Source: Sphyrna mokarran (lineage: Eukaryota). From it: DNA of 64,000 nucleotides. This document shows, piece after piece, positions 15,301-64,000 of this stretch. The notes below the pieces were generated by a model. It was not told where the DNA came from. It saw nothing but the letters and a program-made list of their open reading frames with translations, and did no database searches. The stretch is from positions 14,570,001-14,634,000 of the forward strand of contig JAGIQG010000022.1 in NCBI GenBank assembly GCA_024679065.1, written 5' to 3'. Each line of letters starts with the position of its first letter. Within the stretch, counting starts at the first letter, position 1. Made by a program: the position numbers and the translations under genes.

Positions 15301-18300
15301 AAGCTTGGAGGTTGGCCTTACATTTCTAAACAGTTTCCTTCTTTACATTTCAAGTTGTGACATTTCCAGCCAGTTGGAAGTTGCAAAGTCCTGTTTTCGA
15401 AAGTAAAATGGCATGGCCTCGTGTCAGATGAGTGTCAGGATTCTCTGGTCGTTCACGCCGGCAGGATTCTCTGTTCCTGTCAGCAGCGCACCCTGCGTGC
15501 AAGTTTTCCGTCGGTGTGGGGGTGATGTCACAGACAGCGGCGGGAGCAGGGAATCCTGCCGCTAGCAAACAATGAGCCATGTCCCAAAGGCAGGAATCAC
15601 GCGGCTGGGAGACCAAAGATTCTCGCCCATAAAGCCTATTGGTTATACTGTGAAATGCCAGCTCTTCAAATAAAATTTCAGCACGAAACTCTTTATCAAC
15701 TTTTCCACAATTGGTAATTTGTGATTCTGTTGTTATAGAAAAAATGAAAATGTGGGTAGTGGATGGAAAAAAAGGACGGGGGATCTGTTGTTGTATACAA
15801 GATGAACCCTCAGGTCTGCATCTCACAGAAGATTCTGGAAGGAAATGCTACAGAAGCTCTGACAAAGCCATTCTGATTTGACACTGACTCTATTCACTCA
15901 CGACAGATGCTATCAGAACTGTTGTTATTCTCCAGAATTTTCTGTTTTTGATTCAGATTCCAGCATCCGGGGAGTGGGGGTTAGGTGGGGGGTTGGGGGT
16001 TGGGGTGTTTGGGGGAGGGGGTAGGGGGATGTGCAGAGAGTGGGGGGGGCTGGTGAAAGGTAGTGGTGGTAGTTAGCATTGCTGCTTTACAGCAGCAGGG
16101 ACCTGGTTTTCATTCCCAGCTTGGGTGGCTATGTGGAGTCTGTACGTTTTCCCTGTGTCTGCATGGGTTTCCTCCGGGTGCTTCGGTTTCCTCCCACATT
16201 CTGAAAAACGTGCTGATTATGTACTTTGAACCCGAACGGGCGCTGGGCTGTGGCGACTAGGAGAATTTCACAGTAACTTCATTGCAGTGTTAATGTAAGC
16301 CTTACTTGTGATGAATAAATAAACTTTATTTTGCTTTTAAAGCTTATTTTATTAGTGTCACAAGTAGGCTTACATTAGCACTGTAATGACGTTACTGTGA
16401 AAATACCCTTGTTGCCACACTTTGGCTCCTGTTGGGTACACTGAGAGAGAATTGAACATGGCCAAAGCACTAACCAGCATGTCTTTCAAACTGTGGGAGG
16501 AAACCGGAGCATCCAGAGGAAACCCACACAGACGCAAGGAGAACATGCAGACTCCACACAGACAGTGACCCAAACCAGGAATCAAACCTAGGTGCCTGGC
16601 AGTGTGGAGCAGCAGTGCTAATCACTGCGCCACCTTGATTCTAGATTCCAGTCACCAGCCACTTGTGATTCAGAATTAAGTTCTGCTGCTTCGCTGTTCC
16701 AGGGTCCTGAGTTCGATTCCTGGCTCGGGTCACTGTCTGTGTGGAGTTTGCACATTCTCCTCGTGTGTGCGTGGGTTTCCTTTAGGTACTCCGGTTTCTT
16801 CCCGTAGTCCAAAGATGTGCAGGTTAGGTTGATTGGCCCTGCTAAGAAATTGCCGCTTAGTGTTCAGGCATACATAGGTTGGAGGGATTAGTGGGTATAA
16901 TGTGTACGGATATGGGGGTAGGGCCTGGATGGGATTGCGTTGGTGCAGACTCGATGGACCGTAGGGCCTCTTTCTGCACTGTAGGGTTTTATGATTGATA
17001 TATATGATAAAGTTGGTTCTGCTACAGAAGTGTTGGATTTTTGGATATTTAGAATTTTGCCACCTCCAGCCCTCTGACCTGGAACGGCACTGAAAGGAAA
17101 AACTGTTTAATCTGAATCTTTAATTCCATAGCTGATTCAATGATTTGGGTGAGACAGCTAAACTTCTTGTAATGAATTCCTTTTCACCCTCGACTGCTTT
17201 AATCTGCAAATATAAAAGTAACACAAAAGGACATTGGCCTGAGCAGTGAGTAAGCAGTGAGGAAATCTAAGCCCTATTAACAGCCTGCAAGGTGACACAT
17301 TCTTCACATTCCAGGCTCAGATACATTACAACAATTAATCTCCCATTCTAAACAGGGAGGAGAAACTAATACCTGCTTAAATAAAATGTTTTGGGAGGTT
17401 TCGTATGTGATTTGGGAAATGGATTTAGATATAGGACTGAAATAACCACGGTAAAAGTGTACCTCAAATTGTGGTTAGCACTGCTGCCTCACAGCGCCAG
17501 CGACTCGGGTTCGATTCTAGCCTTGGGTCACTGTCTGTGTGGAGTTTGCATGTTCTCCCCATGTCTGTTTGGGTTTCCTCCGGGTGCTCCGGTTTCTTCC
17601 AACACTCCAAAAATATGCAGGTTAAGTGGTTTGGCCGTGCTAAATTGTCCTTTAGTGTCCCAAGATATGTAGTTTAGGTGGATTGGCCATGCTAAATTGC
17701 CCGTAGTTTAGATGGGTTAGCATGATAAATAAGTTTGTTTATTAGTGTTACAAATAGACTTACATTAACACTGCAATAAAGTTACTGTGTTACGGAGATA
17801 AGATGGAGTGGGTGCAAGAGGCTCCGGACAAGATACTCTGTCAGAGAGTCAGTGCAGACTTGAAGGGATGAATGGCCTCCTTCTGTAATGTAGGGAGTAG
17901 GGATTCTGTGATTCTAGCCACTCTTGATTCAGTATTGAATTGATAACCCTGGTTAGATGTTCAGGGTGACAGCAGCATTAACAATAATTTGGTTTTACCC
18001 AACACTAAGGAGCACTTTAGCATAACCAATCCAGCTAACCCACACATCTTTGGACCACGGGTAGAAATCGGAGCACCCAGACAAAACCCACGCAGACATG
18101 GGGAGAATGTGCAAACTCCATGCAGACTGTGACTTAAGCTAGGAATCGAACCTGGCTCCCTGGCACTGTGAGGCAGCAGTGCTAAGTGCTGTGCTGCAAT
18201 TTCACTTTGTGTGCTGAATTCAATAAATCAGCCAAAAAAAATTTTGCGTGGTTGACTCTTGAACTGCTGTATGCAAATACTTGCTCATAATCTACTAATA

Positions 18301-21300
18301 GAGGTACTGTGTTAGTTGTATGTCAATTGTGTTTAATTATATGCTGGTGGAGGACATTAATTTGAATTTCACTTGAGCATATTTAGAGAGAGACACTTGG
18401 GCCTGTTAATTAGTTTATTAGTTCATTCCTTTATTTTATTCTACTCTACTAGAAAGAGACAATTATTACAATTAATGTAATTCAGCTAGGAGTTATATGC
18501 TTGCAATGTGTCATTCCGTAAATGAATGCAAGACTGAGTAAATAATGTCTCCCTCACCAACCTGCTTTCTCAAATGGAAAATACATGGTTTGTTGTGTAG
18601 CGTGTGCTACAGAGATAAGCTGAACAAAGTTGAGACAGCCAGGTAGAAAATTTGTAATGAGCTGGAAAGTGGAAATAAATGATGCAGATTTATATCCCTG
18701 AGTCTCTGAATCAGGGACAGAGACTCTTTGTGCATATCACAGACGCGTGTCTTTCTTTCCAAAACAGAGGGCGATCCGTGTTCGCAGCCACTCCATGGAA
18801 ACCATGGTGTCGAGCCACAAGAAGCACCACAGCGGGGGGTTGCCAGGCAGCCAGAGTGGCGGGATCCCGCACAGCGCCATGGAAATCATCAAGCACCCCC
18901 CAAACGTGAGTACACATCACAGCATCCTTAGGCAACACACCAAAACCCCATTCAGTAATCGATAGCCACAGGTCTCAGACCCATCCTGCTGGAAGGCTCA
19001 TTCATGGAGACATCACAAGATGGAATGAGACTGCAAGGGTGGAGGCCATTCGGCACATCACACCCGTGCTAGCTTTTTGACAGTGCTGTTCAATTTGTTC
19101 CACTGCTCCGCTCTTTCCCCCAGTATCCTGCAAATAATGATGGATCACAGTATAAACCAGGAACGTCCTGGGTAGGATCAGCCCAGTGCATGCATCAGCC
19201 CATTAGAAAGCAGCCACTTCCCCACAGAAATAAAAGTTTAACGTTTATTTACTAGTGTCACAAGTAGGACTACACTAACACCACAATGAAGTTGCCGTGA
19301 AAATCCTCCACACTCTGGTGCCTGTTCGGGTACACTGAGGGAGAATTTAGCATTGCCAGTGACCTAAACAGTACGTCTTTCACACTGTGGGAGGAAACGG
19401 GAGCATCCAGAGTAAATCCATACAGAGATGGGGAGAACATGCGGACTCCGCACAGACAGTGACCCGAGGCTGGAATCGAACTTAGGTCCCTGGTGCTGTG
19501 AGGCAGCAGTGCTAACCCACTGTGCCATTGTACCTGCTCCAAAAAGAAATATGGAATGCTTCATGAATATAGTGGGGAAAAAATAAATTACAGAACCGAT
19601 GTTTGAGAAAATTAATGTAAATCTCCAAAAAAAAAGGCAAATTCCTGTCTATCGTGGCAAATTCCATTAACAAATCACAATGATGATAGTTTAGTTTCAT
19701 TAGCAAAAATTATTTCAGAATTAAAATTGATTTTGAACACAATTATACTTTAAGCAATCTGAAAATCTGTCATTCGTTCATTAACTGGAGTTCCTTAAAG
19801 CAAAGAGAATGTGGCAAAATACCTAAAACCAAAAGACAAAATGCTGGAAACCTTCAGCAGGCTTTGATAAGGAGCTTTGACAAAGGGTCATCTGGATTCG
19901 AAATGTCTGCTCTTTTCTCTCCTTATAGATGCTGCCAGACCTGCTGAGATTTTCCAGCATTTTCTCTTTTGGTGGCAAAATACTTGTTTGGTTTGTCACA
20001 AAGCCACTAGAAATTTTTGTCAGGCCTACTAAAGTTGAGGTGCAGGAATGGTGAGTTCAGAGATGTAGGATATCTATTTGACATAACTATGCATGACACA
20101 TACAAAACTAGGGACAGGAGTAGGCCACTTGGCCCCTCGAGCCTGCTCCGCCATTCAGTAAGATCATGGCATTTCTGTTTGTAATTTCAATCCCATATTC
20201 CTGCCTACCACTGCTAAGCTTTCATCCCCTTGTTAATCAGAATTTTTCCAGCTACGCCTCAAAAATATCCAAAGACTTTGCTTCCGCTGCCTTTTGAGGA
20301 AGAGATTCACAGCCCCCTTGAAAGAAAAATATTCACCCTGAAGTGAACCCTCACTTTTAAACGGTGTCCCCTAGTTCTAGACTGTCTGACAAGAGGAAAC
20401 ATCCTCTCCACATCTACCTTGTCAATACCCCTCAGGCTTCAACATGGAGCCAGGCCTGTGAGAGGCACCTTAGAGCATTGCCCAATCTCAGACTGGATAC
20501 TGGGGGCTGAGTTTTACTGGGCAGCTCATGATACAGATTTTGATTCTATCTGCAATGATGGAGCGGCAATAGTAAAGGTGGGTATAACTTTGTCTTTTAA
20601 AGATAAGATAAGTAAGATAGGTATAGAGGCTAATGGGCCAAATGCAGGCAATTGGGATTAGCTTAGGGGTTTAAAAAAAAAGGGCAGCATGGACAAGTTA
20701 GGCCGAAGGGCCTGTTTCCATGCTGTAAACCTCTGTGACTCCACACACTCAGAAATGGAGGGCAGTTAGGGATGGACAGTAAATACTGGCCCAGCCAGCG
20801 ATGCCCCCATCCCGTAAAATGAATAAAATCGAATTCATCTATTTCTGCAATGATGTAGCGATCTCTTTGCTTAGCAAACTTCTCATTAATTTTGGCAGCA
20901 AGTCAAGCTTCTGAAGAGCCCAGTGAAAAGAAGATCAGCTCTCTTCTCTCGTCCCCATACGAGCTCAGATAGTCAGCTGGATGGAAGACCACGCTGGTAA
21001 GTGTGTGACCTCCGGAGAGACACCGTTTCTTCAAATACTTTGTCACTCCGTTTTATTTTGCTTATTTTCACTTGCCCCCTTTCCAAATTCCGTGGTGTCC
21101 ATGGTAAGTTAGAATCAATGAAGAATCATAGAACACCTTTATTACCCATTGGATGGTAATGACTGGAATTTACTGTCTACAAGGGTATTGGAAGCAGTGA
21201 TGATGAATGATTTCAAAAGCAAATTGTTCAGGAAATTGGGGGGGAAAGAAATTTACAGATTACGGGAATAGAATGGGGCTGACTAGATTGTTCCAGTCAG

Positions 21301-24300
21301 CATGGATTGGATGGACCAGGTGGCCTCCTTTTGGCTATAATGATGACAGCCATGACTAGGATGTGCTGGCCTAGTGGTATTATCGCCAGATTATTAATCC
21401 ACAAGCTCAGATAATGTCCTGGGGACCCAAGTTCGAATCCCGCAGATGGTGGAATTTGAATTCAGTAAATAAGTAGCTGGAATTAAGAACCTACCGACTA
21501 TGAAACCATTGTCAGTAAAATCCATCTGGTTCATGAATATTCTCTAGGGAAGGAAAATCTGCCATCCTTACCTGGTCTGGCCCATATGTAATTCCAGAAC
21601 AAAGAAATGTGTTGACTCTCAACTGCCCTCGGGCAACTAGGAATGGGCAATAAATGCTGGAGAGGCAAACACCAGTATCCAATGGATGAATAAAAATATA
21701 GGAGTTATTGGTATATAAACCCAAACCATGTTGGTGATTTGATTAACTAGGGTTGCCACCTCTACTTGCACACTTCCCTGGAAGTTTTCACAAATCACCT
21801 GTAACCGCCTCCCCCAGTCAAATAGCTATTTCTTCCCATTTCTAATATTTTACATCACCAATATGCAGTGAAAACTAAAAATAATAATTAGATGCCTCAT
21901 AGAATTTTCTGTCCTCGCAGATTGCTTATAAAGCAGTCCTAGAACATCTTTTTAATTCTTCTTGACAATATTGGAGAATCCTTAACCCTATCAAAATGGT
22001 CCCTGTTTTTTAAGACAGTCAGGATAAGGTTTTGTTTTTAGTGACCCGCCATTTATTTTTAACAGATGACAATTATGATAATAAGAGCAGCTTAACATTG
22101 CTGGAGATTTACCTGAATGAATTTGGTTGTTTGAGCATTTTCACCAAAAATAACTGAGGGAAGATGTCCTTGACATAAAGGGGGGACAGTGAAGTTTTAC
22201 CAGGCTGATCCCTGGTAGATTTTTCAGTTGAAACCAGGCAATTATGAAATGCCCAATTTGTTTAAGATTTAAATGGGATGGATTTCACAACACCAGGAGG
22301 CAAGGTTATTGTAGAGAATGACAACTCTGTGATCCTGAAGTCTCTTGGTGTGACCTGCATAACATTAAGTCACAAATTCAGTGGGAGAATAGTTAACATG
22401 TTTTCTAAAAATGGCACTGACATGTTGCTTTGAATTTTTCTGTGACAGTGAAAGTCTGTCGAGTTTGACCAGGACTCCAGAGAGTGGTCAGATCTCATCG
22501 GACATCAGATGGGAAACATCCTCCAATCCAAGCTCTCCTGAAATGTGTCCCAACAAAGACAGGTAATGTGGGCAGTGTTAATCCCCAGGAGAAACACACA
22601 TGCGCACCACGATAGACTTTTTCCAATGACAAGTTTTTTTTTTACATTTGAAATTGTATCTTTAACAATCTGTGTAACAATAGGAAATGTGGCCAAGAGT
22701 TGCTCATGAACTTTTCCTGTTCAGCTTGCTCATACTTGTTATAGGTCCATTTATTCCTCAGAATAGACAAGACAGCACTGATATGTTGAATTTCTTTTAT
22801 TGAGCAGAATTTAAAATTAACATTTTACAGAGAATGAAAAAATTGGGAGAGAGATAAAAATTGGGATACTGGCAAAAGCCAGTACTGTATTGATCTTGAA
22901 AACAGACTTGATCCAAACCGACTGGAAAACATAATCAGAATACAGAATTATGAATTTTCTATTATCTCGTATTAAGAACATAAGAAATAGGAGTAGGAGT
23001 AGGCATCTAGCCCTTCGAGCCTGCCCCACCATTCAATAAGAACATGACTGATCTGAAGTGGATCAGTCCCACTCACCCGCCTGCTCCCCATAACTCTTAA
23101 TTCTCTTATCTATCAGAAATCTATCTACCTGTGACTTAAACGTATTCAACGAGGGAGCCTCCACCACTTCAATGGGCAGAGAATTCCAGAGATTCATCAC
23201 CCTCTGAGCAAAGAAGTTCCTTCTCAACTCAGACTCTGTTCTAAACTGTACCCCCCACCTTATTTTGAGGCTGTGCCCTCTAGTTCTGGTTTCCTTCCTA
23301 AGCAGAAAGAATAAGCCAAAACAAAACTTTTTATGGCCATATCTGCAAACTAGCTTTGAAGGTTAGAGACAGTTCATACAATACAATTTCAATACATCCA
23401 TAGTTGGGAAAATGCTTGAATCCATCCCACTATTATTTCTTCCAAAGTGGATAATCTCACATTTGCTAATGTTATATTCCATCTGCTAGGTCTTCGCCCA
23501 CTCACTCAGCTTATCCAGATCTCTCTGCAGACTTTCTGCTAGCACTGTAATTCCAAAGATTTTCTCAAGGTGATCCCAGCATGCTTGCTGAGGTCAAAAT
23601 GTGGTCAAGTTAACTTGAAAAGCTTAGCATTTAAATGTAATTGCATAGGCAGACATATCTTAAAATGAAGTCATTGCATTAATGAAGCATACAGAGCTAA
23701 GCATGCAGAGGATCCCTCACTTATTGTATTATGTGGGTGCAAAGGGTATTAAGGTGTCCAATCAGCCAAGATCATAATAAATACAGAACAGGCTCGATGG
23801 GCAGAATGGCCCCTTCCTATGTTCCTATTATCTTTCCCAAACGCCTGAACCATGTCCTTTCAATCTGTTGATATTCCAATGATATGCCATGTTAATATAC
23901 CGCGGCTGGAACTTTCCAGACATTCAAATCAGCGGGATTTTCCAGTCCCGTCAATGGTGCACTCCCACTGCAGGTTTCATGGCAGGAAGAGATACATTCA
24001 GTCGCTAACCTCATTGAAATTGGTGACACCACAGTGGTTAGTACTGCTGTCTTGACCTGGGTTCGATTCCACCCTGGGGTGACTGTCTGTATGGAGTTTG
24101 CTCATTCTCCACGTGTCTGCATGGGTTTCCTCCAGGTGCTCCAGTTTCCTCCCACATTCCAAAGATGTGCAGGTTAGGTGGATTAGCCATGCTGAATTGT
24201 CCATTAGTGTTCTAAGATGTGTAGGTTAAGGGATTAGGGTGGAAAGTGGGTCTGGATGAGATGCTCTGTCAGAGAGTGGATGCAGACCCAATGGGCCAAA

Positions 24301-27300
24301 TGGCCTCCTTCTGCATCTTAGAGATTTTATGATTCCATAATCAGAAGATTCCGCCGCCAGCCGATGGTGGGCCACCTCCTGCCGCTGCGAAACACACGGC
24401 AAATTTCAAGGTAAATCCCACCCCATCTCTCTCTGATGCTTGATCTGTCCCATCATCTAAAGGGAGGTGATGGCTTAGTAGTATTATCGCTAGATTAGTA
24501 ACCATAAACTCAATTAACGATCCAGGGATCCAGTTCTAATCCTGCCACTGCAGGTAGTGAAATTTGAGTTCAATAATAAATAAATAATTAAGAATCTACT
24601 GATGATCATGAAATTATTGTTGGTTGCTGGAAAAACCCGTCTGTTTCACAAATGTCCTTTAGAGAGGAAACTGCCATCCTTATCTGGTCTGGCTTACATA
24701 TGGCTCTAAAGCCACAGCAATGTGGTTGAGTCTCAACTGCCCTCTGAACAAGGACAACTAGGGATGGGCAATAAATGCTAACCAGTTAGCGATGCCCATA
24801 TCCCATGAATCAATAATGAAAAAAATCATTCACTCACCCTCAAATTTGGACTCACTGTTGGTGATGCTCTTGTACCGTGTGACAAAGGCACAATGCCAGC
24901 TTCTCATGTTGTCCTTCATTGGGTGGCATGGTGGCACAGTGGTTAGTGCTGCTACCTCGCAGCGCCAGGGATCTGGGTTCAGTTCCCAGCTAGGGTTACT
25001 GTCTGTGTGGAGTTAGCCCATTCTCCCTGTGTCTGTGGGTGCTCCAGTTTCCTCCCACAGTCCGAAATAGGTGTTGACTATGTGCATTGGCCATGCTAAA
25101 TTCTCCTTCAGTGTTACCCGACCAGGTAGCATGGAGTGTGGCGCCTAGGGTGTTTTCACAGTAACTTCATTGCAGTGTTAATGTAACTTGTGACGCTCAT
25201 AAATAAACTTAAAAAATAACTCATTCTTCAACAGAGCCTTCAGCAAACTCAAGGAGAATGGCAGAGGCAACATCTCTCGTTCCTCATCGAGCACGAGCAG
25301 TTTCAGTAGCACTGCTGGTGAGAACGAAGTGTTGGAGGAGTACGAGGGCGGAACAGTGAGTATATGTGGGGACAGCCTGGCGGAACAGGCACACTACGGA
25401 TGAGTGAGCTTAACCTGACTGATGCAAATGTAAGAAAGTCTTAGCGTCATCTCATACAGAATAAAAGCAAAATATTGCGGGGTGCTGAAATAAAAGCCAA
25501 AAATGCTGGCAGCATCTGTGGCGAGAGAAACAGAGTCAGCGTTCTGAGTCCAATATGCCTCTTCTTCGCAGAAGTTCTGTTTCGCTCTCCTCAAAGCCTG
25601 CGTGACTATCTGGAATCACACAGGAAGGCCCCGGATTCTAGGCCTGGCTTGTGTTGAGTTTGCTCATCTTAAGTAAGGCAGCAGTCCGGTGCACCCAGCC
25701 TCAGCACTTCTGCCGCAGAGGTAGTAAAATATAATTCCTCACTCTGGATCTTTACTCCGTGACACTGACAACATTTAAAAGGCATTTGGGCAGTCACGTG
25801 GATAGGAAAGGTTTAGCGGATATGGGTCAAATGCAGGCAAAATGGGGTTAGTTTAGATGGGCATGCTGGTCAGCATGGACCAGCTTGGGCTGAAGGGCCT
25901 GTCTCTGTGCCGTTGATTCCATGATGCCTTATTGAAAATCCGTGTGTGTGTTGAAGTGCTGGGGGCAGTATCAAACTCAGAGGCCGAAGTACCTTTACCA
26001 GGATTCCTTTTATTTACCAACCCAATTCTACTCCTTGAGTGCCTCAGCTCCACAGTCAGAATCAGGAGTGCCAATGGACTTGACACTCCCATACTTATAT
26101 GTAGTAAAACGTCTCACAACGTTAGGTTAAAGTCCAACAGGTTTATTTGGAATCACGAGTTTTCAGTGTGCAGCTCCTTTATCAGGTAAGCAAGCAGCGC
26201 TCCGAAAACTCGTGATTCCAAATAAACCTCTTGGACTTTAACCTGGCATTGTGAGACTTCTTACTGTGCCCACCCCAGTCCAATGCCAGCATCACCACAT
26301 CTTACTTATATATAGGTGGGGTTCCCTGATTGGGCAGGCAATCATTACCTCAATCAGGGAGCTCATACTCCAAGAGTGGGCATGGCCTTGTGGAAGTCAA
26401 TATGCCACCTTCCACATAAATACAATCAAATAGCATCTAACGCCCGATGTCATGAAGGATAGTCTCTTAAAGAAGGTTCTGGATTGGGGGAAGAGGGCCG
26501 CTGTATAACTCATGGTGTTCCTTTCAGAAAGAAAGACGAGGAAAACAAAATAGGGCCAAGTTTTCCCCGCTGTGGCAAAGGAATAATTTCCACTGCCCAA
26601 CCCACATCTAACTGCCCACAGACTGTGGGAATACTGTGTACAGTTCTGCTCACCCTATTATAGAAAAGATATTACAGAAAAGATTTACTAGGATGCTACC
26701 GGGACTTGATGGTTTGAGTTGTAAGGAGAGGCTGGATTGACTGGGACTTTATTCTCTAGAACATAGGAGGCTAAGGGGTGACCTTATAGAATAATGAGGG
26801 GCACAGATCAGCTAAATGTCAATATCCTTTCCCAAAGGTAGGGGAATCTAAAACTAGAGGATATAGGTTTAAGGTGAGAGGGGAGAGATACAAAAATGTT
26901 CAGAATAACAATTCTTTCATACAAAGGGTAGCGAGTGTCTAGAACAAGGTGCCAGAGGTGGGTACAATTTTGTCTTTTAAAAAACATTTAGACAGTTATA
27001 TGGATAAGATGGATATGGAGGGATATGGGCCAAATGTGGGCAATTGGAATTAGCTTAGGGGTTTAAAAAAAAGGGGCGGCATGGACAAGTGAGGTGAAAG
27101 GGCCTATTTCCACGCTGTAAACCACTGTGAGTCTTTGAAGTTCACCACACTTTGGCAAGAGAGATTTCCATTAATGCAGAGCTGGCGGCACTGTCTACAG
27201 GGATATGTGACACCTGTAAACAGAGCAAACCACAGCAAGGCTCTTCAACCAATCAGAGTGATGTATCCTCACTGACAGCTGGATTTTCCAGGCCCCGAGA

Positions 27301-30300
27301 CAAAGAGGGGAGCGGAAGCAGAGTTCAGGTCTGGGGCTTTCAGGGAAAGATGGGAGAGGGGGTGGTGTGGAAGGGGGAGGGGCAGTGGTGGGCATGTAGC
27401 CACATTGTTATCACTACAATAATATTCAAGCCACTGTGTAAAAGCATGGTAACATCGGTAACTAATTACTGATCAGTTGCCTAATGCTCTTTTTCTATCC
27501 TTACAGCCATCTCCTTTCAGATCGGATGTTTTTGCCTACAGCAATGAAAACCAAAGCGGCTCAAGTCAAACGAGCTTGTGCAAGAGCCCCACAGGTCTGT
27601 ACGTCTACACTCATACGTTCCCACCACTTTATTCCCTATTCAGAAACCTCACCCAGTTGCCCCAGCAGTGGTACAGACAGTTGAGGGAAGAGTAAATGAG
27701 GATGATTTTATTCTGTATGTGTTGTTATGATCTGGAAGATTGGTGGAAGCAGATTCAGTAATAGCTAACAAAAGGGGAACTACATACGGTGGTTAGCACT
27801 GCTGCCTCACATCCATTGACAACTTACTTTATAAAGGGGAACGTCCATTCAGAAATGGTCTTATTGGCTGTCCCAGGCCCTTGGGGAACCCCAGGCCCTT
27901 GTTAAGATGATCAAAAACTGATGCCTGCAGAAATCAGAGGGACCAGGAGACCACAGACAGATACCTGAACAGATGGTCCCCTTTATAAAATAAGTTGTCA
28001 ATGGATGAGAGGCTGGTTTGAGTGGTGGACCGTTCACAACCCTTTGTAACTCCTTGCAGAGCAGGAGCCATGCCAAGATGTGATACAACCAGAAAGAATG
28101 CTTTCTTTGGTGCATCTGTGAAAGTTGGTGTCTCAATTGAAAAGAAAGCTGGGGTTGGTTAGTCATGAGCCATGAGCTGACATCTGCCATCAGAGTACTG
28201 TACTGTGTGTTAATACTTGTTGAGTGTTTATTACTTTCTTCCACAGACACTGCAAAGTGTAAAACCTCTCCAAGAACGACTTTGAAATTCAGATTTGAGA
28301 AACTCCATCACAGCTCAAACCCAGTGAGTATGCTTGGCACTTGGACCAGCCCTTGCTTTGTACTGCTTTGTTAGATCTGATTAATTCCTCAATTTGTTTG
28401 TACACCCTTTGCCAGGATTGCAATAATTCAGCAGCAATATTTCTCCCCCAGCCCTCTCACCGACCCCACCCCCTCAGCCCTTCCCCCTGGTCGGTCGGGT
28501 CCTTCAAAACCTTTAGGACTGAGGTGAGGAGAAATTTCTTCACCCAGAGAGTGGCGAATGTGTGAAATTCGCTACCACAGAATGCAGCTGAGGTCAAAAC
28601 ATTGTGTGATTTCAAGACGAAATTAGATAGAGCTCTTGGAGCTGAAGGGATTAAGGATATGGAGGGGAAGAGGCGGGGGGGGGATTAGGATATTGAATTT
28701 GATGATCAGCCCATGGTCCAAATGAATGGTGGAGTAGACTCAAAAGGTCAAATGGCCTACTCTTATTTCTAGTTTCTACATTTCTATGTAAAAATGGCAG
28801 AATTGACTGAATTCCAGGATTTCCAGGCCTGATTTCTGATGCCCCCAGTTTCCGCCAGCACGAGAATAAGACTCCGGGCTGGTTCAAGTCACAAGGCTGC
28901 ATCCTGAAGTCCTGACCTGGCCAGAGGGAATAGGCTTCTCCGAGCCCCCTGCACTTCTCATGGAGTCAGATCAGCTTTTCAACAGCTCATAGTCCTCAGC
29001 CCCTTAGAGCTATCATGACCGTAGTCTGAAGGAAGGAGACATTTGAAAGCTAGGTCAACAGGTCTTGCCCCTTTGCCAATCAATCCCCAATGGCCATTCA
29101 TATCCACCATGTCTATCTCTGCCTCTCCAACCACTCCCAGTGGTCCCTTAAACCTTCAATGCCAATCTATGGCACTTCCATGCCCATTCACCCAGAATAC
29201 ACTTGGCGCACAATCAGCGTACCCTATTGTAACAATTGCATGCGTGGAAGAGCTTTAGAAATTGTCATTCATTCAGATTTTTATTTTTAATATCTGCTTT
29301 TATTACAGCCCTATAAAAGTGAGCATAATCCTGACTTTTGAAAGTATCAGTAGTGGAAACTGTCTGCACTTGACACTCTTTATTTTGTGCACATAAACAT
29401 GGTACAATTCACAATGTAGTTCTAAGAGAAGGATTATCTTATTGAAACATATAAGATAATTAGAGGTTTGGATAGGGTGGACAGTGATAGCCTTTTTCCT
29501 AGGATGGAAAAAGCTAGCACGAGGGGACACAACTTTAAATTAAGGGGTATGAGTTATAGGACGGATATCAGAGGTAGGTTCTTTACTCAAAGAGTGATTA
29601 GGGAGTGGAATGCCCTGCCTGCAGCTGTTGTGGATGCGCCAAGTTTGGTGGCGTTTAAGAGGTTAGTTGATAAGTATATGGATGAGAAGGGAATGGTTTA
29701 GTTAGGAGGGGCATTGCTTTTTATTTTGGTCGGCACAACATCGAGGGCCGAAGGGCCTGTTCTGTGCTGTATTGTTCTATGTTCTATGTTCTATGTTCTA
29801 TTGTCATTCCAGCAAAATTTGCCCTTGGGTGCAGCAGATATTTTTAATATCTGCTTTTATTACAGCCCTATAAAAGTGAGCATAATCCTGACTTTTGAAA
29901 GTATCAGTAGTGGAAACTGTCTGCACTTGACACTCTTTATTTTGTGCACATAAACATGGTACAATTCACAATGTAGTTCTAAGAGAAGGATTATCTTATT
30001 GAAACATATAAGATAATTAGAGGTTTGGATAGGGTGGACAGTGATAGCCTTTTTCCTAGGATGGAAAAAGCTAGCACGAGGGGACACAACTTTAAATTAA
30101 GGGGTATGAGTTATAGGACGGATATCAGAGGTAGGTTCTTTACTCAAAGAGTGATTAGGGAGTGGAATGCCCTGCCTGCAGCTGTTGTAGATGCGCCAAG
30201 TTTGGTGGCGTTTAAGAGGTTAGTTGATAAGTATATGGATGAGAAGGGAATGGTTTAGTTAGGAGGGGCATTGCTTTTTATTTTGGTCGGCACAACATCG

Positions 30301-53492: not shown

Positions 53493-53507
53493 TCAGTAGG
53501 GCTTCTT
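53493..53507 (-). CDS. Terminal coding exon KKPY* (KKxx ER-retrieval motif)
   Basis: Minus-strand ttttatttcttccacag|AAG AAG CCC TAC TGA. Confidence 0.72.
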   Translation of the reverse strand, partial: KKPY

Positions 53508-56500
53508 CTGTGGAAGAAATAAAAGGAAGAACATTAAATACTACACCAGAAGATAACAGTGTATGATGATTCTAATGGTTGCAGTGCTTTTTCCAAAAAC
53601 AAATTTAAGAGTTTAAAAAAAAGTTATGAAATCATATTAATTTTGCCAGCTTGCTTTAATTTGTTAATTCCTTCTGAGCTAAACATCAAACTCAACATAT
53701 TAACCGGAGTTCTCTGACATCATTCATCCCACTGCCAGGGAGAATGGAGAATTTGGCACTCAGCCAAAATTCCATTCCTAGAATCCCTACAGTACAGAAG
53801 GAGTCCATTTGGCCCATCAACTCTGCACCAACCACAATCCCACTCAGGCCCTATTCCTGTGAACCCACACATTTACCCTGCTAATCCCCCTGACACTAAA
53901 GATCAATTTATCATGGCCAATCAACGTAACCTGCACGTTTTTGGACTGTGGGAGGAAACCGGAGCACCCGGAGGAAAACCACACAAACATGGGGAAAATG
54001 AACAAACTCCACACAGACAAATTGGGAATTGGGTCCCTGGTGCTGTGAGGCAGCAATGCTAGCCACTCTGCCGCTTCGCCACCATTCACAAAGCGAGACC
54101 GGAGAATCCCAACTGTCCTGTCTGCATGCCATCACCTCCTGTTTCTATCCCAGCCTCAACCCAACCACAGTAAAAACCTTAATCACTCCAGACTCAAATT
54201 CTCAAGAGTACTTCTCACTGGGTTGTCTGTATGTCACAAGTTCCACATCTATGTTTTGGCTTGTATTAAGTCTCTTGCACCGATCATCTCTACCTTCACT
54301 AACTATTAGCTTCAATCTCTGACAGCACTGAATTTGAAAACTCCACAACTGAAATAGTACACACCATGGAATCAGCCGGGTGCCATAAACTCCATTCCCA
54401 CATCCTGTCACAGTCTATTTAGGCTACTGATTCTGGTCTCCTTCCTCTGCCCCATCAGACATCTAGCTCCTAATTCCCAAACATCCTCTCCATTTTCATA
54501 TTTTTTTTTTGTCATTAAAAGCCTTCTCAAACCCCACCATGCAATGAGCAAGAATGAAGTAATTTTTTTCTTGGCAAAAAGAAAGGATATAATTTCAGGG
54601 AAAGTATGAAAATATCTTAAACCGCAAAATGTACAATACCTTTGTTCAAAAGGAAATGAGGGTCACATATTAATTTGAGACAGAACTTGAGTTCTGCTGA
54701 AGAAAGATGTTTCGTCAAAGACTTCATCTGGCATTCCATAGAACCATGGAATACCTACCGTGCAGAAGGAAGCCATTCGGCCCATCAAGTCTGCACCGAC
54801 TCTCTGAAAGAGCATCTTACCCAGTTCCCCGTCAAACTCCATCCTTGTGCATTTGGCATGGCTAATCCACTGAACCAACATATCCCTGGACACTAAAGGG
54901 GAATTTAGCATGGCCAACCCGCACATCGCTGGACACTAAAGGGGAATTTAGCATGGCCAACCCGCACATCGCTGGACACTAAAAGGGAATTTAGCATGGC
55001 CAACCCGCACATCGCTGGACACTAAAGGGGAATTTAGCATGGCCAACCCGCACATCGCTGGACACTAAAGGGGAATTTAGCATGGCCAACCCGCACATCG
55101 CTGGACACTAAAGGGGAATTTAGCATGGCCAACCCGCACATCGCTGGACACTAAAGGGGAATTTAGCATGGCCAACCCGCACATCGCTGGACACTAAAGG
55201 GGAATTTAGCATGGCCAACCCGCACATCGCTGGACACTAAAGGGGAATTTAGCATGGCCAACCCGCACATCGCTGGACACTAAAAGGGAATTTAGCATGG
55301 CCAACCCGCACATCGCTGGACACTAAAGGGGAATTTAGCATGGCCAACCCGCACATCGCTGGACACTAAAAGGGAATTTAGCATGGCCAATCCACCTAAC
55401 TTGCACATCTTTGGACTGCAGGAATATGTGCAATGGCCCTGCCTCCATTGTTCTCTGGGGAAGAGAATTCCAAACATTAATGAACCTCAGAGAGAAGAAA
55501 TTCCTTCTCCCCTTCATCTTAAATGAGAAACCCGTTATTTCTAGGCTCCTGCATGAGGGGAAGCATCTTGTAACCAGTCATGTTCCCTCAGAATCTGATA
55601 TGTTTTAATGCGATTGCTTCTCCTCCTTCTAAACTGCAATGAGTATAGGCCCAACCTGAACAACCTTTCCTCACAGTCTGACAGAGGGGAAGAAAATACA
55701 GTTACATTGCCAACAAAGTCAGTGATTCATTGGCATTGTATCTAACTAAAATCACCTTTAATACTTTCTTATAGATTCTCTGTGTAAGACTGTGACATTA
55801 ATAAAATTCAAATTACACTGCTCTTACCTTGTTTCTTTCTGTAACTGCAAAGGAAAGGATAAAAAGTCATTAAAAACTCACAATCACACCGCGCAGTGAA
55901 CAGATCACAGCTGACACACACAAAAAATAGTAAGGTGCTTTTGGGGAAAGAAACTAAAAACTTCTGACTTTCATCTAACCGCTGCACTTAGGCTTGAAAA
56001 TAAATTGAACACGATTGGGTAGCTGATCGAGGCATCGAGGGGTGAGCACCAAATCGCAAATCAAATCAAATCCATCAACAATAATGCCCATTTCAATCAA
56101 ACTACAAAGAGTCGTGAATGTAGCCCAATCCATCACACAAACCAGCCTCCCATCCATTCCCGCTGCCTCGGAAAAACAGCCAGCATAATCAAGGACCCCA
56201 TGCACCCTGGACATTCTTTCTTCCACCTTATTCCATTGGGAAAAAGATACAAAAATCTGAGGACGTGTACCAACCGACTCAAGAGCAGCTTCTTCCCTGC
56301 TGCTGTCAGAGTTTTGAATGGACCTATATGAATTAAGCTGATCTTTCCCTATACGCTAGCTGTAATTTAACAGTACATCCTCCACCCTCTCCTTTCCTTC
56401 TCTCCTATATACTCCATGAACAGTATCTTTTTCTGTGTAGTATGTAAGAAACAACACTTTTCACATCATCCCAATACATGTGACAATAATAAATCAAATC

Positions 56501-59500
56501 AAATGTAATAATATATTCTTCAATCACTATCTCCAAGAGTATTCAAACTCTCACCCATTGTCCTTTCCTTGCTTCACTTCTCAATACTTTTGAGATCCTG
56601 AGCCCCTTTGCCAACATTCCTCGATTTCCAAATTTTTGTTTACAAAACAGTCCCCAAATCTATCTCATTCTGCCTCTACAAATCCCTCACATTCTGTTTT
56701 CTTCCCAGACTGATCCATGATATTCCCCAATTCTCTCTACCCAGGAATTGACAGCAGAGCCTTCAGCCATCATGCTCAACCGCTTCCTAAACTTCTAAAT
56801 CTTGCTGCATCACTCCACACCTTAAAAAGTCCCGGAAAATATATCCCTTCATCTTCACTTTCCCCATTTCCCAAACTGCACTGTGTCTTTCCTTCCTTAA
56901 CCATGAGGTGCCTTTTAGATAGTTCATTGTAGTTGTTGATGATATTTAACTTTCTGAGTTTCTCGCTCCCAATCCACCATGTAGCAAGAGTAAGATGACC
57001 CTCTTGTCATACCATCCAAGAAACCTCCACTGTCATTCTATCAGGAAAATCCCAGACAAAGTTACTCTAACACAATCACATCGCCATTAGGCCCTTTCAC
57101 ACTTCCTGTTGCAACCTCCTCTTAAGCAATCAACCCAAGCTGCTTCAGCAACCAACACTGGGTTCAGTAAAAGATAATCACTGATACAGCATTCCAATAA
57201 AACTCAGCATTGCTCTTTCAAGCATATCATTCAATGTTCTGATGGGTCTAATTTTACAAACAAACAGAACATCCCGTTTTAGTAAATCTATTATTTTTTG
57301 GGTTTTTTTTAAATAATTCATTTGTGGGACATGGATGTCACTGGCTGAGTGTCAATTGCCCATCCCTAATTGCTCTTGGAGGGCAGTTGAGAGTCAACCA
57401 CATTGCTGTGGCTCTGGAATCACATGTAGGTCAAGCCTTTCTAAAGGAACATTAGTGAACTAGATGAATTTTTATGACAATGCTTTCATGGTCATCAGTA
57501 AATTCTTAATTCATTTGCAAAGATAAACTGCATCATTGCCAATTAAAGAACTAAAAATTCATCTGACCTTGACAAAACAGTTATTTAAATAGCGAGAAGC
57601 CCAATCGTGACCTGGCTGTCCAACTAGATCTATAAATCTTATGAAACTCTATTTCATAACATGCCTGCCAAAACCTTGTTCAAAGTTGTAAGCCGTTAAT
57701 GTTTATAAATCAATATTGATTTCGCTCATGGCCACTTTCTCTATCCAGTTGGGAGCTGTATTATCCCTCAATATCCCTGACATAACAGAGCTTTAGATGC
57801 TTTTAAAAGGAAATTAAATGAAATCAGATAGGAGAAAAGGTATGAGAGAAAGATATGCTGAAAGACAAAGTAGACAGAACATACAATCCCTACAGTGCAG
57901 GAGGCCATTTGGCCCATCGAGTCTGCACTAACTCTCTGACAGAGTATCTTATCCATGCCCTCTCCCCCACCCTTATCTTGTAACACCACATATTTACCAT
58001 GGTTAATACATTTCACCTACACATCTTTGGACACTTAGGGGCAATTTAGCATGGCCAATCAATCTAAGCCACCCATCTTTGGACTGTGGGAGGAAACCGG
58101 AGCGCCCAGAAGTAGCCCTCACAGACAAAGGGCGAACTTCACACAGATCACCATCCAAGGTCAGAATTGAACCCGGGTCCCTGGAGCTGTGAGGCAGCAA
58201 TGCTAACCTCGGTGCCATCATGCTGCCCAGGAACAAGAAGAGAGTTATATAGAATGGAAACACATCAAAAATATTTATGGCTAATTGTCCTGTTTCTGTG
58301 CTACATACACGGTGCGATTCAGTGAAAAAAAATCCCCTCTGGTGTGAGCTTCCACACAAAAATGTTTTTGCAAGTTGCTTATACAAAGATTGGCCAATCA
58401 CAACAGCGATTACTGTGGAAATATGGACATGGCATCAGAAAATGCTGACAGCAGAGAATTTGTAAAAACAAAAACTCACTATTTTTTATTCGAATCAGCA
58501 GCATGACCAGGAAAGCGCAGATAACCAGGATTATAACCGACGTTAAGATGAACAGAAATATCTGAGACTGTGCTGTGGAAGTAACACAAAAGATTTTCAA
58601 TGTCAGTGTTTTGAGAATTGTTGCTGTGTACATTGCAAACAGGAGTTCCCCTCAAAGGAGAACCAGAAGACCTCTGGTTAACATTTATCCTTTCAATTAA
58701 AAGTTTATTTATTAGTCAAAAGTAAGACTTACATTAACATTGCAATGAAGTTAATGTGAAATTCCCCTAGTCACCACACTCTGGCACGTATTTGGGTCAA
58801 TGCACCTAACCAGCACATCTTTTAGACTGGGGGAAGGAAACCGGAGCACCCAGAGGAGAGAAAATGCAAACTCCACAGGTCTCTAGTGCTGTGAGGCAGC
58901 AGTATTAACCACTGTGCTACCATGCCACCCCAACATTTAACATCAAAAACCAAAAAGCATTTTTATTTTTTTATTTATTAGTGTCACAAGTAGGCTTACA
59001 TTAACACTGCAATGAAGTTATTGTGAAAATCCCTTAATCACCACACTCTGGGTACACTGAGGGAGAATTTAGCATGGCCAATGCACTTAACCAACACACC
59101 TTTTGGATTGTGGGAGGAAACTGGAGTACCCGGAGGAACTTCACACAGACACTGGGAAACTCCGCACAGACAGTGACCCAAGCCGGGCCTCAAACCTGGG
59201 TGCCTGGTGCATTGAGAAGCAACAGCGTGAATCACTGTGCCACCTTGCCGCTATATTTCTCACTTCATTTATTATATGTTACACTTGGCAGAATTAAATA
59301 TAAATTGTTTGCCTCATTGCAAAGATGATTTAAATATTTCTTCAAAGAATTGACCATATGTTTTGTCCTTTCTTCTCTGCTTTGGAATTATTTGATCAAT
59401 GAAGAAGCTGATAAAGAATTTCTGCTTCTAAAGGTCATTTATGTTGACACAAGGACAGAACCCTGAGATACTCCATTCATCATCCCCACTCCTGCTAACA

Positions 59501-62500
59501 CTGTACATTTCACACTCTTTATTTCTTACTATTCACTCACTTCCAGTCTCCAGGTGTTGCCCTCAATTCTCCTGCTTTTAGTTTTGTCATAAATCTTTCT
59601 TGTTAAAATAACTGTTTGAAAATCCAGTTAAATTATGTCAAGAGGAATTCTACTGTTTTTGTTTGCAGTGTCCCAGAAAGAATTAGACCTCATTGCAGCT
59701 CCTGAACTCAGAGTGAAATGGAAGCGACTGCCCCTGAGTGATAGAGCAAAGTGTGCACAGGATAATGAAAATCTGCAAAGGGATACAGATAGTCTAAGTG
59801 AGTGGGTGAGGGTCTGGCAGATGGAGTACAATGCTGGTAAATGTGATGTCATCTATTTTGGTAAAAGGGATGATTATTTAAATAGTAAAAAACTGCTGCA
59901 TGCTGCTGTGTAGAGGGATCTGGGTGTCCTTGTGCATGAATCACAAAAGCTTGGTTTGCAGGCGTAGTGGATAATTAATAAGGCAAACAGGATTTTGTCC
60001 TTCATTGCTAGAGGGACGGAGTTTAAAAACAGTTATGTTACAACTATATAACATGCTAATGAGGCCACACCTGGAGTAATGTGTACAGTTTTGGTCTCCT
60101 TACTTGAGAAAGGATATAATGGCACTGGAAAGGATGCAGAGAGGATTAACTAGGTTGATTCCAAAGTTGAGAGGGTTAGCTTATGAGGAGGGACTGAATA
60201 GACTGGGATTACACTGACTGGAATTCAGAAGAATGGGGAGGGGTTTCTAGAAACATATAAAATTATGAAGGGAATAGATAAGATAGAAGCAAGGAGGTTG
60301 TTTCCACTGGCAGGTAAAACCAGAACTCAGGGGCATGGCCTCAAAATAAGGGGGAACAGATTCAGGACTGAGTTGAGGAGGAACTTCTTCACCCAAAGGG
60401 TTGTGAATTGTGGAATTCCCTGTCCAGTGAAACAGTTGAGGCTACCTCATTGAATGTTTTTAAGGCAAAGATAGATACATTTTTGAATAGTAAAGGAATT
60501 AAGAGTTATGGTGAGCCCTTGGCAAGCAGAAAATATATATTAAAGATGAACCTTTGGGCCATCATAATCCTAGGAACCAAACTGGTTGTAAAATAGTTGC
60601 AATGTTCAGTGAATTAATGAATATTCTCACCAAATTAGCATTGCCTCAATATCAAGAGAGGGAGTTGCGATGTGAACATCTATCATAGCATCGGATTCCC
60701 ATGCGTGTTGACTTTATGAAACACAATTTCAAGCAAACGTCATCACCGGACTCTCCTCATCGCTTACCCTCCACTTTTACTTGGATGTAACGTTTGATCG
60801 GTTTCTCCAAGCTGACATGCTCAACCCGGCAAGTGTAGGTGACGCCATTGTCCCTGAGGGAGGCAACGAGCCTGAAGAAACTGCTCATGTTGTAGGTGCC
60901 ATCTGTGTTCCGCCGGTGGGGCGAGAAGATGATGTTGGACATGTAGACGGGCAGCATGTGCCCCTCGCCCTGCTCCCGTAGCCACCTCACCGTCACGTCC
61001 AGTGGATAATAGCGGTTTGTCTCACACATCAGCTTCTGCTCATCCCCCTCCTTCAGGGAGAGGGAATCAGGGCTCACTGAGACAATGGGTGACTCTGCAA
61101 AGGAAGCACCACACGCACAATAAATCACAACCAAACTGAACGTCCATTCACATTTTACAAGCTCGCTAACACTCAAGGATTTCCCCACCCCCAAGGCACG
61201 ATTTCCAGCAGCGGAGTCAGATCATCATTGGCCACCAACAGGATGATGTGGTCCCACTAAAGTCCAATGGTGATTTGCATTGCTGTCCCACCGTGCCACC
61301 TGAGAACGCACCACTGGAGTCCACCTCCAGCGGCACTGGAAGATTCTGCCAGTGGGAAAGGCCGGAAAATCCCACCAAAGAACTTGAAACTTTCAATCTC
61401 TTCAAATGGAATGAAATTGGAAGAATGAATCTTCCAATGTGAACATGACTCTGCAGAAGCTAGCAACTAAAAAAAACTGAAGTAGTTTTTGAAAATAATC
61501 CTTTACGGTTTTCCTCAATTGCATGGTGATATTTCCACAATCATTATGTTACACACACGTTTTAAAACACTGATGAAAAAAAGCATGTGTTTAGTGTATC
61601 TGCAAGGACCATGTTTGAGAGTGACAGGGTTCAGACTGTAATACGTATCTATGGGCGATACAGTGGCACGTTGGTTAGTACTGCTGCCTCACAACGTCAG
61701 GAACCCAGGTTCACCCCTCTGTCTATGGGTTTCTTCCGGGTACTCTACTTTCCTCCCACAGTCCTGAAAGATGTGCTGGCCGTGCTAAATTCTCCCTCAG
61801 TGTACCCGAACAGGTGCCGCAGTGTGGTGACTAGGGGGTTTTCACGGTAATTTCAGTGCAAAAATAAACAAAAAGTAGAAGTAAAATTTGTTTATTAGTC
61901 ACAAGGAGGCTTATATTAACACTGCAATGAAGTTACTGTGAAAATCCCTTAGTTGCCACACTCCAGCGCCTGTTTTTTTTTTCAAAGAACAAAACAGCAC
62001 GGGAAACAGGCCCTTCGGCCCAATGAGCCCAATGTTTGGGTACACTGAGGGAGAATTTAGTATGGCTAATGCACCTTACCAGCAGATCTTTCAGATGAAG
62101 CGTAACTGGAAAGGGCAGTTTTTGGAAGTTATGATTAAATGTGCTATCTTTTTATTTTTATTTTATTTATTATTATTGTCACAAGTAGGCTTACATTAAC
62201 ACCGCAATAAAGTTAAAGTGAAAATTGTGTAGCCGCCACACTACAACACCCGTTTGGATATAGTGAAGGAGAATTTAGCACAGCCAATACACCTTGCCAG
62301 CATGTCTTTGGACTGTGGGAGGAAACCGGAGCACCCAGAGGAAACCCATGCAGACATGGGGGGAACATGCAGACTCCGTACAGTGACAGTGCTAAGGTAA
62401 GCCGCCAATGTTCTGTTCAACACTGTTCTGTCATCCCGAATGGTTTCAAACTGTCATTTCTCTTGACCCATTCACTTACAAATGTTGACCAATTTATCGG

Positions 62501-62853
62501 ACTCGGAATCTTACCCATGATCTCCACCTCCATGGTGTGTGTTCCAAAGAGTGGAGGGACATACACAGAACACATGTAGGTTCCCTCATCATTAATGCTG
62601 ATACTTTTAATGCGAATGGAAGCATTTCCATTTTTGATTTGATCCATAAATACTTCAACTCCTTTCTCCAAGTGTTCAACCCGCTCATGTCGTCCATTGT
62701 AGGAGAACAGTTTCTTCTTGGTTCCTTTGTGTTGGTATCTCCAGTCAATATTAAAGTCAGTACTGTGATCAATCTTGTAGCCGCAGTCCAGAACAAGGTT
62801 TCGCTTGAGTTTGGTTCTAATCAGTGGGGTGCTGGTGTGCACAATGTAGCTCA
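53493..62853 (-). CDS. TAPBPL: Tapasin-family (tapasin-related / TAPBPL-type) protein, 5'-partial spliced CDS: complement(join(53493..53507,55828..55844,58480..58572,60768..61094,62515..62853))
   Basis: IgV, IgC1, TM and short tail ending KKPY*; all junctions GT-AG and phase-compatible (1-1-1-1-0). C1 motifs YYPLDVTVRW, GTYNMSS and YTCRVEHVSL resemble TAPBPR and tapasin. The symbol is family-level only. Confidence 0.8.
54886..55390. repeat. 43-bp minisatellite (~11.7 copies) expanded inside a minus-strand HE1-type SINE
   Basis: Unit ctggacactaaaggggaatttagcatggccaacccgcacatcg recurs every 43 nt from 54886 to 55359. Confidence 0.95.
55828..55844 (-). CDS. 17-nt cytoplasmic micro-exon (ITERNK)
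   Basis: Minus-strand tcctttcctttgcag|TTACAGAAAGAAACAAG|gtaagag; strong splice sites, converts phase 1 to phase 0. Confidence 0.72.
56095..56504 (+). mobile_element. Rex1/Babar-like LINE 3' end with (AAATC)n tail
   Basis: Decayed frame KLQRVV...IIKDPMHPGH...TNRLKSSFFPAAVRVLN; tail catgtgacaataataaatcaaatcaaat. Confidence 0.6.
57877..59250 (-). mobile_element. HE1-type SINEs flanking the TM exon (57877-58228, 58700-58928, 58968-59250)
   Basis: Family motifs. Confidence 0.8.
58480..58572 (-). CDS. Tapasin-like transmembrane exon (AQSQIFLFILTSVIILVICAFLVMLLIRIKN)
   Basis: Minus-strand cttccacag| ... |gtgagt; 23 uncharged, mostly hydrophobic residues followed by RIK; phase 1-1. Confidence 0.85.
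59745..60515 (+). mobile_element. CR1 LINE RT C-terminal fragment
   Basis: LQRDTDSLSEWVRVWQMEYNAGKCDVIYFG and [11 protein letters not shown] remnants. Confidence 0.88.
60768..61094 (-). CDS. Tapasin-like IgC1 domain exon (ESPIVSVSPDSLSLKEGDEQKLMCETNRYYPLDVTVRW...YTCRVEHVSLEKPIKRYIQVKVE)
   Basis: Minus-strand cctttgcag| ... |gtaagc; C1-set CxxxxYYP, W and YxCxVxH signature. Confidence 0.93.
62515..62853 (-). CDS. Tapasin-like IgV domain exon (SYIVHTSTPLIRTKLKRNLVLDCGY...WRYQHKG...GNASIRIKSISINDEGTYMCSVYVPPLFGTHTMEVEIM)
   Basis: Minus-strand acceptor tttgcatgttag| and donor |gtaaga; V-set Cys, Trp and DxGxYxC signature. Confidence 0.92.
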
Positions 62854-63915: not shown

Positions 63916-64000
63916 AATATTTTTTTTTTTGCAGCACTCTCTCTGAAATTATTCCGAATTGGTTTGCATTTGAACATTACCTTGAACTAACAGAGTGTCG

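Follow-up and report, generated by a model that had tools for sequence, protein, structure and literature searches.

Three tapasin-family members occur in many non-mammalian jawed vertebrates (Kaufman, 2022; PMC9586880), and the third paralogue besides tapasin (TAPBP) and TAPBPR, termed TAPBPL, has been described in ray-finned fish, frogs, turtles, birds and opossum, with its origin placed at the second vertebrate genome duplication (Grimholt, 2018; PMC5824609). According to this description, TAPBPL is characterized by the lack of a transmembrane (TM) lysine, a basic ..KPY tail and, in part of the copies, an endoplasmic reticulum (ER) signal (Grimholt, 2018; PMC5824609). The name TAPBPL is used here sensu Grimholt 2018 and not as the human gene symbol TAPBPL, which designates TAPBPR. 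A literature search, which did not cover subscription papers or bioRxiv supplements, retrieved neither a description of this paralogue from cartilaginous fish nor a test of its function, and equally the accessible parts of PMC13262535, PMC9022212, PMC6523485 and PMC4008236 contain nothing on a TAPBPL paralogue in cartilaginous fish. A stretch of 64,000 nucleotides from the shark Sphyrna mokarran (the window; positions 14570001-14634000 of contig JAGIQG010000022.1, here C794) harbours on its minus strand a gene that, judged by its sequence, is most probably the shark orthologue of TAPBPL in intact form. The lineage is known, though little studied, and it is the shark member that is new and not the kind of system; as automated annotation of many shark genomes already carries these proteins under the name 'tapasin-related protein-like', the surprise is modest.

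The gene is intact and real in this shark. The gene model consists of 8 exons on the minus strand, which encode 432 amino acids in a frame without stop, with all introns (7/7) being GT-AG and in phase. An earlier note on the window alone had proposed a tapasin-family protein with IgV, IgC1, TM and tail segments, all of which were found: the IgV-like domain in exon 4 (62515..62853; Pfam V-set, E 5e-12), with Cys193-Cys264, the glycan site N246 and the MHC-I-facing residues D206/R208/Q210/M263/T274, the IgC1 domain in exon 5 (60768..61094; Pfam C1-set, E 3e-11; Cys306-Cys371), the uncharged TM helix in exon 6 (58480..58572) and the tail in a 17-nt exon 7 (55828..55844), which matches the tails of orthologues among P0001-P0008, and an exon 8 that reads KKPY-stop (53493..53507). 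The 5' exons, whose recovery had been proposed, were identified by tblastn with shark homologues against 148 kb of upstream DNA, whereby three further exons were retrieved past the window end (extended window coordinates, to which 14570000 is added to obtain the contig position): exon 1 with the signal peptide (72353-72308; splice model), exon 2 with Cys33 and the equivalent of the editing loop (68345-68166) and exon 3 with Cys94 of the tapasin N-domain (64262-63981), of which the last 20 nt are window positions 63981..64000. Exons 2-3 encode approximately 145 residues that are located N-terminal to IgV and align to tapasin, so that the absence of a tapasin N-domain, which had been named as a refutation of membership in the tapasin family, did not materialize. 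Furthermore, a 1972-nt contig (X1-8) of sequencing run X1, possibly RNA, matches exon 5 over its entire length up to both borders with 0 differences, and the TM exon is covered at the same X1 depth value, which fits a spliced transcript, no exon-exon joint being displayed. The last intron contains, as seen by eye, approximately 10 tandem copies of a unit of approximately 47 nt derived from a short interspersed element (window 54890-55400).

A profile search identified 21 orthologous database proteins, 16 of the shark/ray/chimaera type besides lungfish, frog and 3 marsupials. In a tree of 33 rows (without the partial or redundant rows P0004, P0007, P0011, P0013, P0015, P0016, P0022, P0023, P0027, P0034, P0038 and P0042-P0047), TAPBPL (16) and TAPBP (16) are split by a branch with support 98/97, which is present in 100% of bootstrap trees; the tool flags the branches of the outgroup and the frog as long. 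The window protein and the Mustelus asterias protein (87.5% identity) are sisters in this tree, the TAPBPL side includes lungfish, frog and marsupial sequences, and a B7-like row from this genome falls outside the tapasin family. Identity of the window protein to shark tapasins amounts to 30-35% (27-35% when rays are included); equally, TAPBPL and tapasin of one species share 30-32%, as compared to 55-57% between shark and chimaera TAPBPL orthologues. Motifs of the opossum and gar TAPBPL of Grimholt are present by eye in the marsupial rows and in the shark gene. ESM Atlas matches for the Mustelus orthologue (P0001), which are considered a lead and no test, carry tapasin-family and Ig cluster names only. 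Among them, match 3, a V/C1 cluster of 434 amino acids auto-named 'dehydrogenase/reductase SDR family member 13b.2', might represent TAPBPL models misnamed after a neighbour.

The clean orthologues in sharks, rays and chimaeras directly support the split of TAPBP and TAPBPL before the separation of sharks and bony fish as put forward by Grimholt. The TAPBPL lineage is as old as the jawed vertebrates and has been lost in placental mammals. Of the proposal in the earlier note that the gene belongs to a third tapasin-like lineage of non-mammalian vertebrates and dates it to early jawed vertebrates, the lineage and the date hold, while 'non-mammalian' does not, as marsupials retain TAPBPL, and the date had already been inferred by Grimholt. 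The suggested combination of TAPBPR-like and tapasin-like features, on the other hand, dissolves, as an uncharged TM and a basic ..KPY tail constitute the published TAPBPL pattern; a hybrid of the two human genes has consequently been rejected in favour of an orthologue of the known lineage.

The protein features are consistent with this assignment. The predicted protein is composed of a signal peptide, the tapasin N-domain, IgV, IgC1, a TM of 23 residues with zero charged residues and a tail ending TERNKKKPY, with the lack of charge and the KKPY end having been read correctly from the window, the latter from the last exon (53507-53493). The end KKKPY is found in 11/11 cartilaginous rows and the lungfish, and in the same 12 TAPBPL rows the TM is uncharged, as opposed to tapasin with K or R within the most hydrophobic 23-residue window in 15/15 rows that have a TM. 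TM column identity is 0.61 in TAPBPL versus 0.79 in tapasin, with the TM being the least conserved part of TAPBPL, as compared to 0.85 versus 0.83 for IgV. Shark tapasins possess an acidic pair before the TM (ED, DD or EE in 7/8 rows, ND in one) and keep the TM basic residue; TAPBPL lacks both, and the FxxxFxxxGxxK pattern of the tapasin TAP-contact segment is absent. A search for the ERp57-binding cysteine, which had been recommended, showed six luminal cysteines, all at conserved paired positions, and one cysteine in the TM; no unpaired luminal cysteine is present in the predicted protein. Cys95, the free ERp57 cysteine of tapasin, has no counterpart in shark TAPBPL, and is also lacking in fish and chicken tapasins according to Grimholt (PMC5824609). 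Equally, C94, the UGT1 site of TAPBPR, has no counterpart in the alignment. The extra N-domain cysteine of Grimholt's TAPBPL is Val123 here and no cysteine in 11/11 cartilaginous rows, and it is also lacking in the frog, turtle and opossum TAPBPL rows of that paper (PMC5824609); it is a variable and not a defining trait of TAPBPL.

Tapasin-family architecture is equally seen in the predicted fold, with the N-terminal tapasin domain being followed by IgV, IgC1, TM and a short tail. A structure model was made of the Mustelus orthologue in place of the window protein from 38 aligned sequences, with a predicted local distance difference test score (pLDDT) of 85 (35 in an earlier 8-sequence model). 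Its residues 27-390 match the top 8 tapasin/TAPBPR chains with Z 23.5-26.9 and a root-mean-square deviation (rmsd) of 2.7-5.5 over 299-342 aligned residues, including 7qng with Z 25.4, rmsd 2.9 and 319 aligned. A complex prediction of residues 26-392 with the three exon-encoded domains of a classical-type class I chain, run without beta2m and without alignments, gave a score of 0.00 and thereby no verdict. As tapasins were among the aligned sequences of the model, the fold match confirms architecture more than ancestry.

Concerning the face that contacts MHC class I, tapasin TN6 comprises the residues E205/R207/Q209/Q272 (PMC9956121), which map to D206/R208/Q210/T274 in the alignment of shark TAPBPL. 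The TN5 position, which we take to be I261 of tapasin, is M263. All five positions are invariant in 16/16 tapasins, and of the TN6 triad D/E-R-Q, the acidic residue and R are each conserved in 11/11 and Q in 10/11 cartilaginous TAPBPL rows. A loop of the N-domain edits peptides in TAPBPR (PMC6307860), and the counterpart of this loop, which the earlier note had recommended to look for, was found in exon 2 with a hydrophobic pair in 11/11 cartilaginous rows. With contact residues partly conserved and the face partly remodelled, MHC class I binding of shark TAPBPL appears plausible, as the less secure step.

Several points weigh against the assignment or its functional extension. The alignment for the model included tapasins, which makes the fold match not fully independent. 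The tree contained no TAPBPR rows, so that separation from TAPBPR rests on scores and synteny, and with the TAPBPL profile the best human structure is TAPBPR (145 bits), with human tapasin falling short of E 1e-22. On the contact face, the last TN6 glutamine (Q261/Q272) is T in 9/11 and Q in 0/11 cartilaginous rows, the TN5 isoleucine has changed to T in 7/11, and frog and 3 marsupials have lost E and R of the triad (4/4). The upstream promoter pattern discussed below was tested after the TAPBPL site had been seen, with the tapasin site found afterwards. Finally, no functional study of the lineage was found.

These changes on the contact face are the ground for an alternative that accepts the identity as TAPBPL and assigns it another client, nonclassical class I lineages or another Ig-domain protein of the ER, in place of classical class I. 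Remodelling of the Q261/Q272 and TN5 positions in sharks, retention of the gene in frog and marsupials despite loss of the triad, and the dozens of class I exons on another contig (C1548; 53 matches), with TAPBPL not being MHC-linked, speak for such a client, whereas retention in sharks of the D/E-R-Q triad, of a basic IgC1 patch and of the N246 glycan site, an IgV conservation equal to that of tapasin and a promoter element common to both genes speak against it; we regard a client other than classical class I as rather unlikely.

Considerably less probable is an orthologue of TAPBPR that has left the CD4/LAG3 region. Among PDB sequences, human TAPBPR gives the best match, and a search of this assembly for a separate TAPBPR exon was negative among the scored candidates (150/163, 97/165, 93/173 and 134/134) as well as in the 200 kb surrounding one VAMP gene. 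Against human TAPBPR, however, shark tapasin (P0024) scores 118-122 bits and the Mustelus TAPBPL orthologue 94-98 bits. The IgC1 domain, which had been judged closer to TAPBPR than to tapasin, is so with respect to the human proteins only, and the TAPBPR-like look is due to the comparison with the divergent human tapasin. Furthermore, the window gene lacks C94 and keeps a tapasin-type N-domain Trp that TAPBPR lacks. Failure to find TAPBPR is uninformative, as whole-genome searches likewise yielded neither GAPDH (0 candidates) nor the NCAPD2 N-terminal family; this assembly may lack the segment equivalent to 12p13, the TAPBPR region, or the search may not have reached it. Human TAPBPR lies in the CD4/LAG3/CD27/VAMP1 region, and the window gene resides elsewhere. 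The white shark has tapbp on the MHC chromosome and a separate 'tapbpl' together with CD4 and A2M on chr40, and the catshark 'tapbpl' (chr16) lies beside CD4/LAG3, as listed in Verissimo 2023 (PMC10751288). The chr40 gene is read here, from its listing, as TAPBPR; the white-shark orthologue of the window gene sits on a 171.6-Mb sequence. For sawfish, the entries of MHC paralogon 12 include a 'tapbpl' on chr21, apart from A2M (chr46; PMC10751288, supplementary Table 1). The sawfish orthologue of the window gene (P0009) is located on a 39-Mb sequence, and the chr21 entry may be the third paralogue and not TAPBPR.

A surface receptor ligand with V-C1 domains like B7/NCR3LG1 can practically be dismissed. 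The V-C1 pair does score nearly as high against B7-H6 as against TAPBPR (96 versus 98 bits), but B7-H6 has no tapasin N-domain and aligns only to V-C1 (model residues 170-388; Z 16.7, rmsd 2.4, 205 aligned), whereas the window protein possesses the N-domain and a conserved KKxx tail and is placed by the tree with the tapasin family away from the B7-like row, contrary to the grouping with B7/butyrophilin/NCR3LG1-type proteins that had been named as a refutation. A cluster of at least 9 B7-H6/NCR3LG1-like C1 exons is present at C1437:96.8-97.3 Mb.

A second paralogue is located at C1548:112.958-112.973 Mb, where it adjoins a VPS52 exon and retrieves database proteins named tapasin; these names, the VPS52 neighbour and the contig with MHC class I identify it as the true tapasin. 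As all 53 MHC class I matches of the genome equally reside on C1548 and the window gene on C794, the claim of a location away from MHC genes holds. Within C1548:112,935,000-112,973,000 (L046-L050), tapasin exons 1-4 were found but none of the C1, TM and tail exons ahead of VPS52, and the intervening stretch is mostly G-rich simple repeat. In the databases, the tapasins of whale shark and basking shark (P0022, P0023) likewise end after IgV. Loss of functional tapasin in this shark was considered and rejected on account of the G-rich repeat at the missing exons and the full-length protein of a close relative (P0026); an assembly fault in a hard-to-assemble region is the likelier cause.

The neighbour, which the earlier note called RAP1GAP2, is a RAP1GAP-family gene on the plus strand, tail to tail with TAPBPL (3460..28523, extent partly mapped; Rap_GAP matches at 4894-5049 and 8528-8707 besides candidate exons). 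While the Rap_GAP gene is present, the '2' in its name, in preference to RAP1GAP, is an assumption. Further neighbours are an Exo5-family gene and VPS53, with the multi-exon EXO5-family gene between TAPBPL and VPS53 on the minus strand (C794:14,647,267-14,654,430; L012-L013); human EXO5 has a single coding exon and is located on chromosome 1.

Upstream of TAPBPL, 61 nt before the ATG, the minus strand carries GAAAGTGAAAGT (start at 72414, extended coordinates), which we take from its consensus to be an interferon regulatory factor (IRF) element. On C1548, the same 12-mer precedes the tapasin ATG by 82 nt, with the strict pattern occurring 8 times in the 732 kb scanned. Just upstream, a site AGGAACTTCC, presumably NF-kB/ETS-like, and a second IRF-like half site are seen by eye (L012:420-470, minus strand). 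Salmon TAPBPL genes rise 1.5-3 log2 with interferon-gamma (PMC7573153).

Shark TAPBPL likely resides in the ER as an interferon-inducible chaperone for molecules of the MHC class I type, predicted to act outside the TAP/ERp57 peptide-loading complex. The KKxx motif is an established ER-retrieval signal, and ER residence, TAP independence and MHC class I binding are suggested by sequence features. KKKPY would mediate COPI retrieval to the ER, and upstream IRF binding would provide interferon induction. A covalent link to ERp57 would not form, because a spare luminal cysteine is absent, with Grimholt's extra cysteine being Val. Docking on TAP would not occur, because the tapasin ED pair and the TM basic residue are absent and the TM is poorly conserved. 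The TM lysine of tapasin, which had been put forward as the residue that engages TAP, does not sustain this argument, as a 2026 cryo-EM structure of the peptide-loading complex locates E391/D392, F397 and F401 where tapasin meets TAP, with K408 making no direct contact (PMC12758552); loss of the E391/D392 pair together with poor TM conservation would be the better argument. Peptide-receptive class I may be bound at its alpha2-1 helix and alpha3 through the IgV sheet and IgC1, the N-domain loop may serve as a lever for peptide editing, and the client preference would be shifted from that of tapasin. More tentatively, and on balance doubtful, jawed vertebrates might have begun with three class I chaperones, of which TAPBPL would be the ER-resident, TAP-independent and interferon-driven one with a binding face retuned for other clients such as nonclassical shark class I. 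If true, this would constitute a third loading or quality-control route, lost by placental mammals, and shark TAPBPL, in which more of the tapasin contact face survives than in the frog and marsupial copies, would be well suited for tracing the original client. The conserved KKKPY, drifting TM, common IRF element and altered TN5/TN6 positions provide specific predictions for localization, TAP independence and client range, making shark TAPBPL useful for dating the tapasin family and designing first functional tests of a lineage without known function.

Compared with the known systems, the gene shares with Grimholt's TAPBPL the N-domain, IgV and IgC1 motifs, six conserved cysteines, the glycan equivalent to N233, the lack of a TM lysine and the basic ..KPY tail, but derives from cartilaginous fish, a group not sampled in that paper, lacks the 'TAPBPL-unique' cysteine of ray-finned fish and birds, and has a canonical KKxx tail where many bony-vertebrate copies display KxKxx or no signal. 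With TAPBPR (human gene TAPBPL, 12p13; PDB 5WER, 5OPI), it has in common the fold, the IgV disulfide, similar IgC1 motifs and the absence of the tapasin TAP-contact TM features, but differs by the missing C94, the KKxx tail, another N-domain signature and other neighbours (RAP1GAP-family, EXO5, VPS53). With tapasin it shares the domain order, the predicted fold, the 8 coding exons (PMC4008236 for tapasin), a dilysine-type tail and the upstream IRF element, but identity within one species is only approximately 31%, the GPSIED-type connecting peptide and the TM basic residue are absent, two MHC class I-contact positions are changed and the gene is not MHC-linked.

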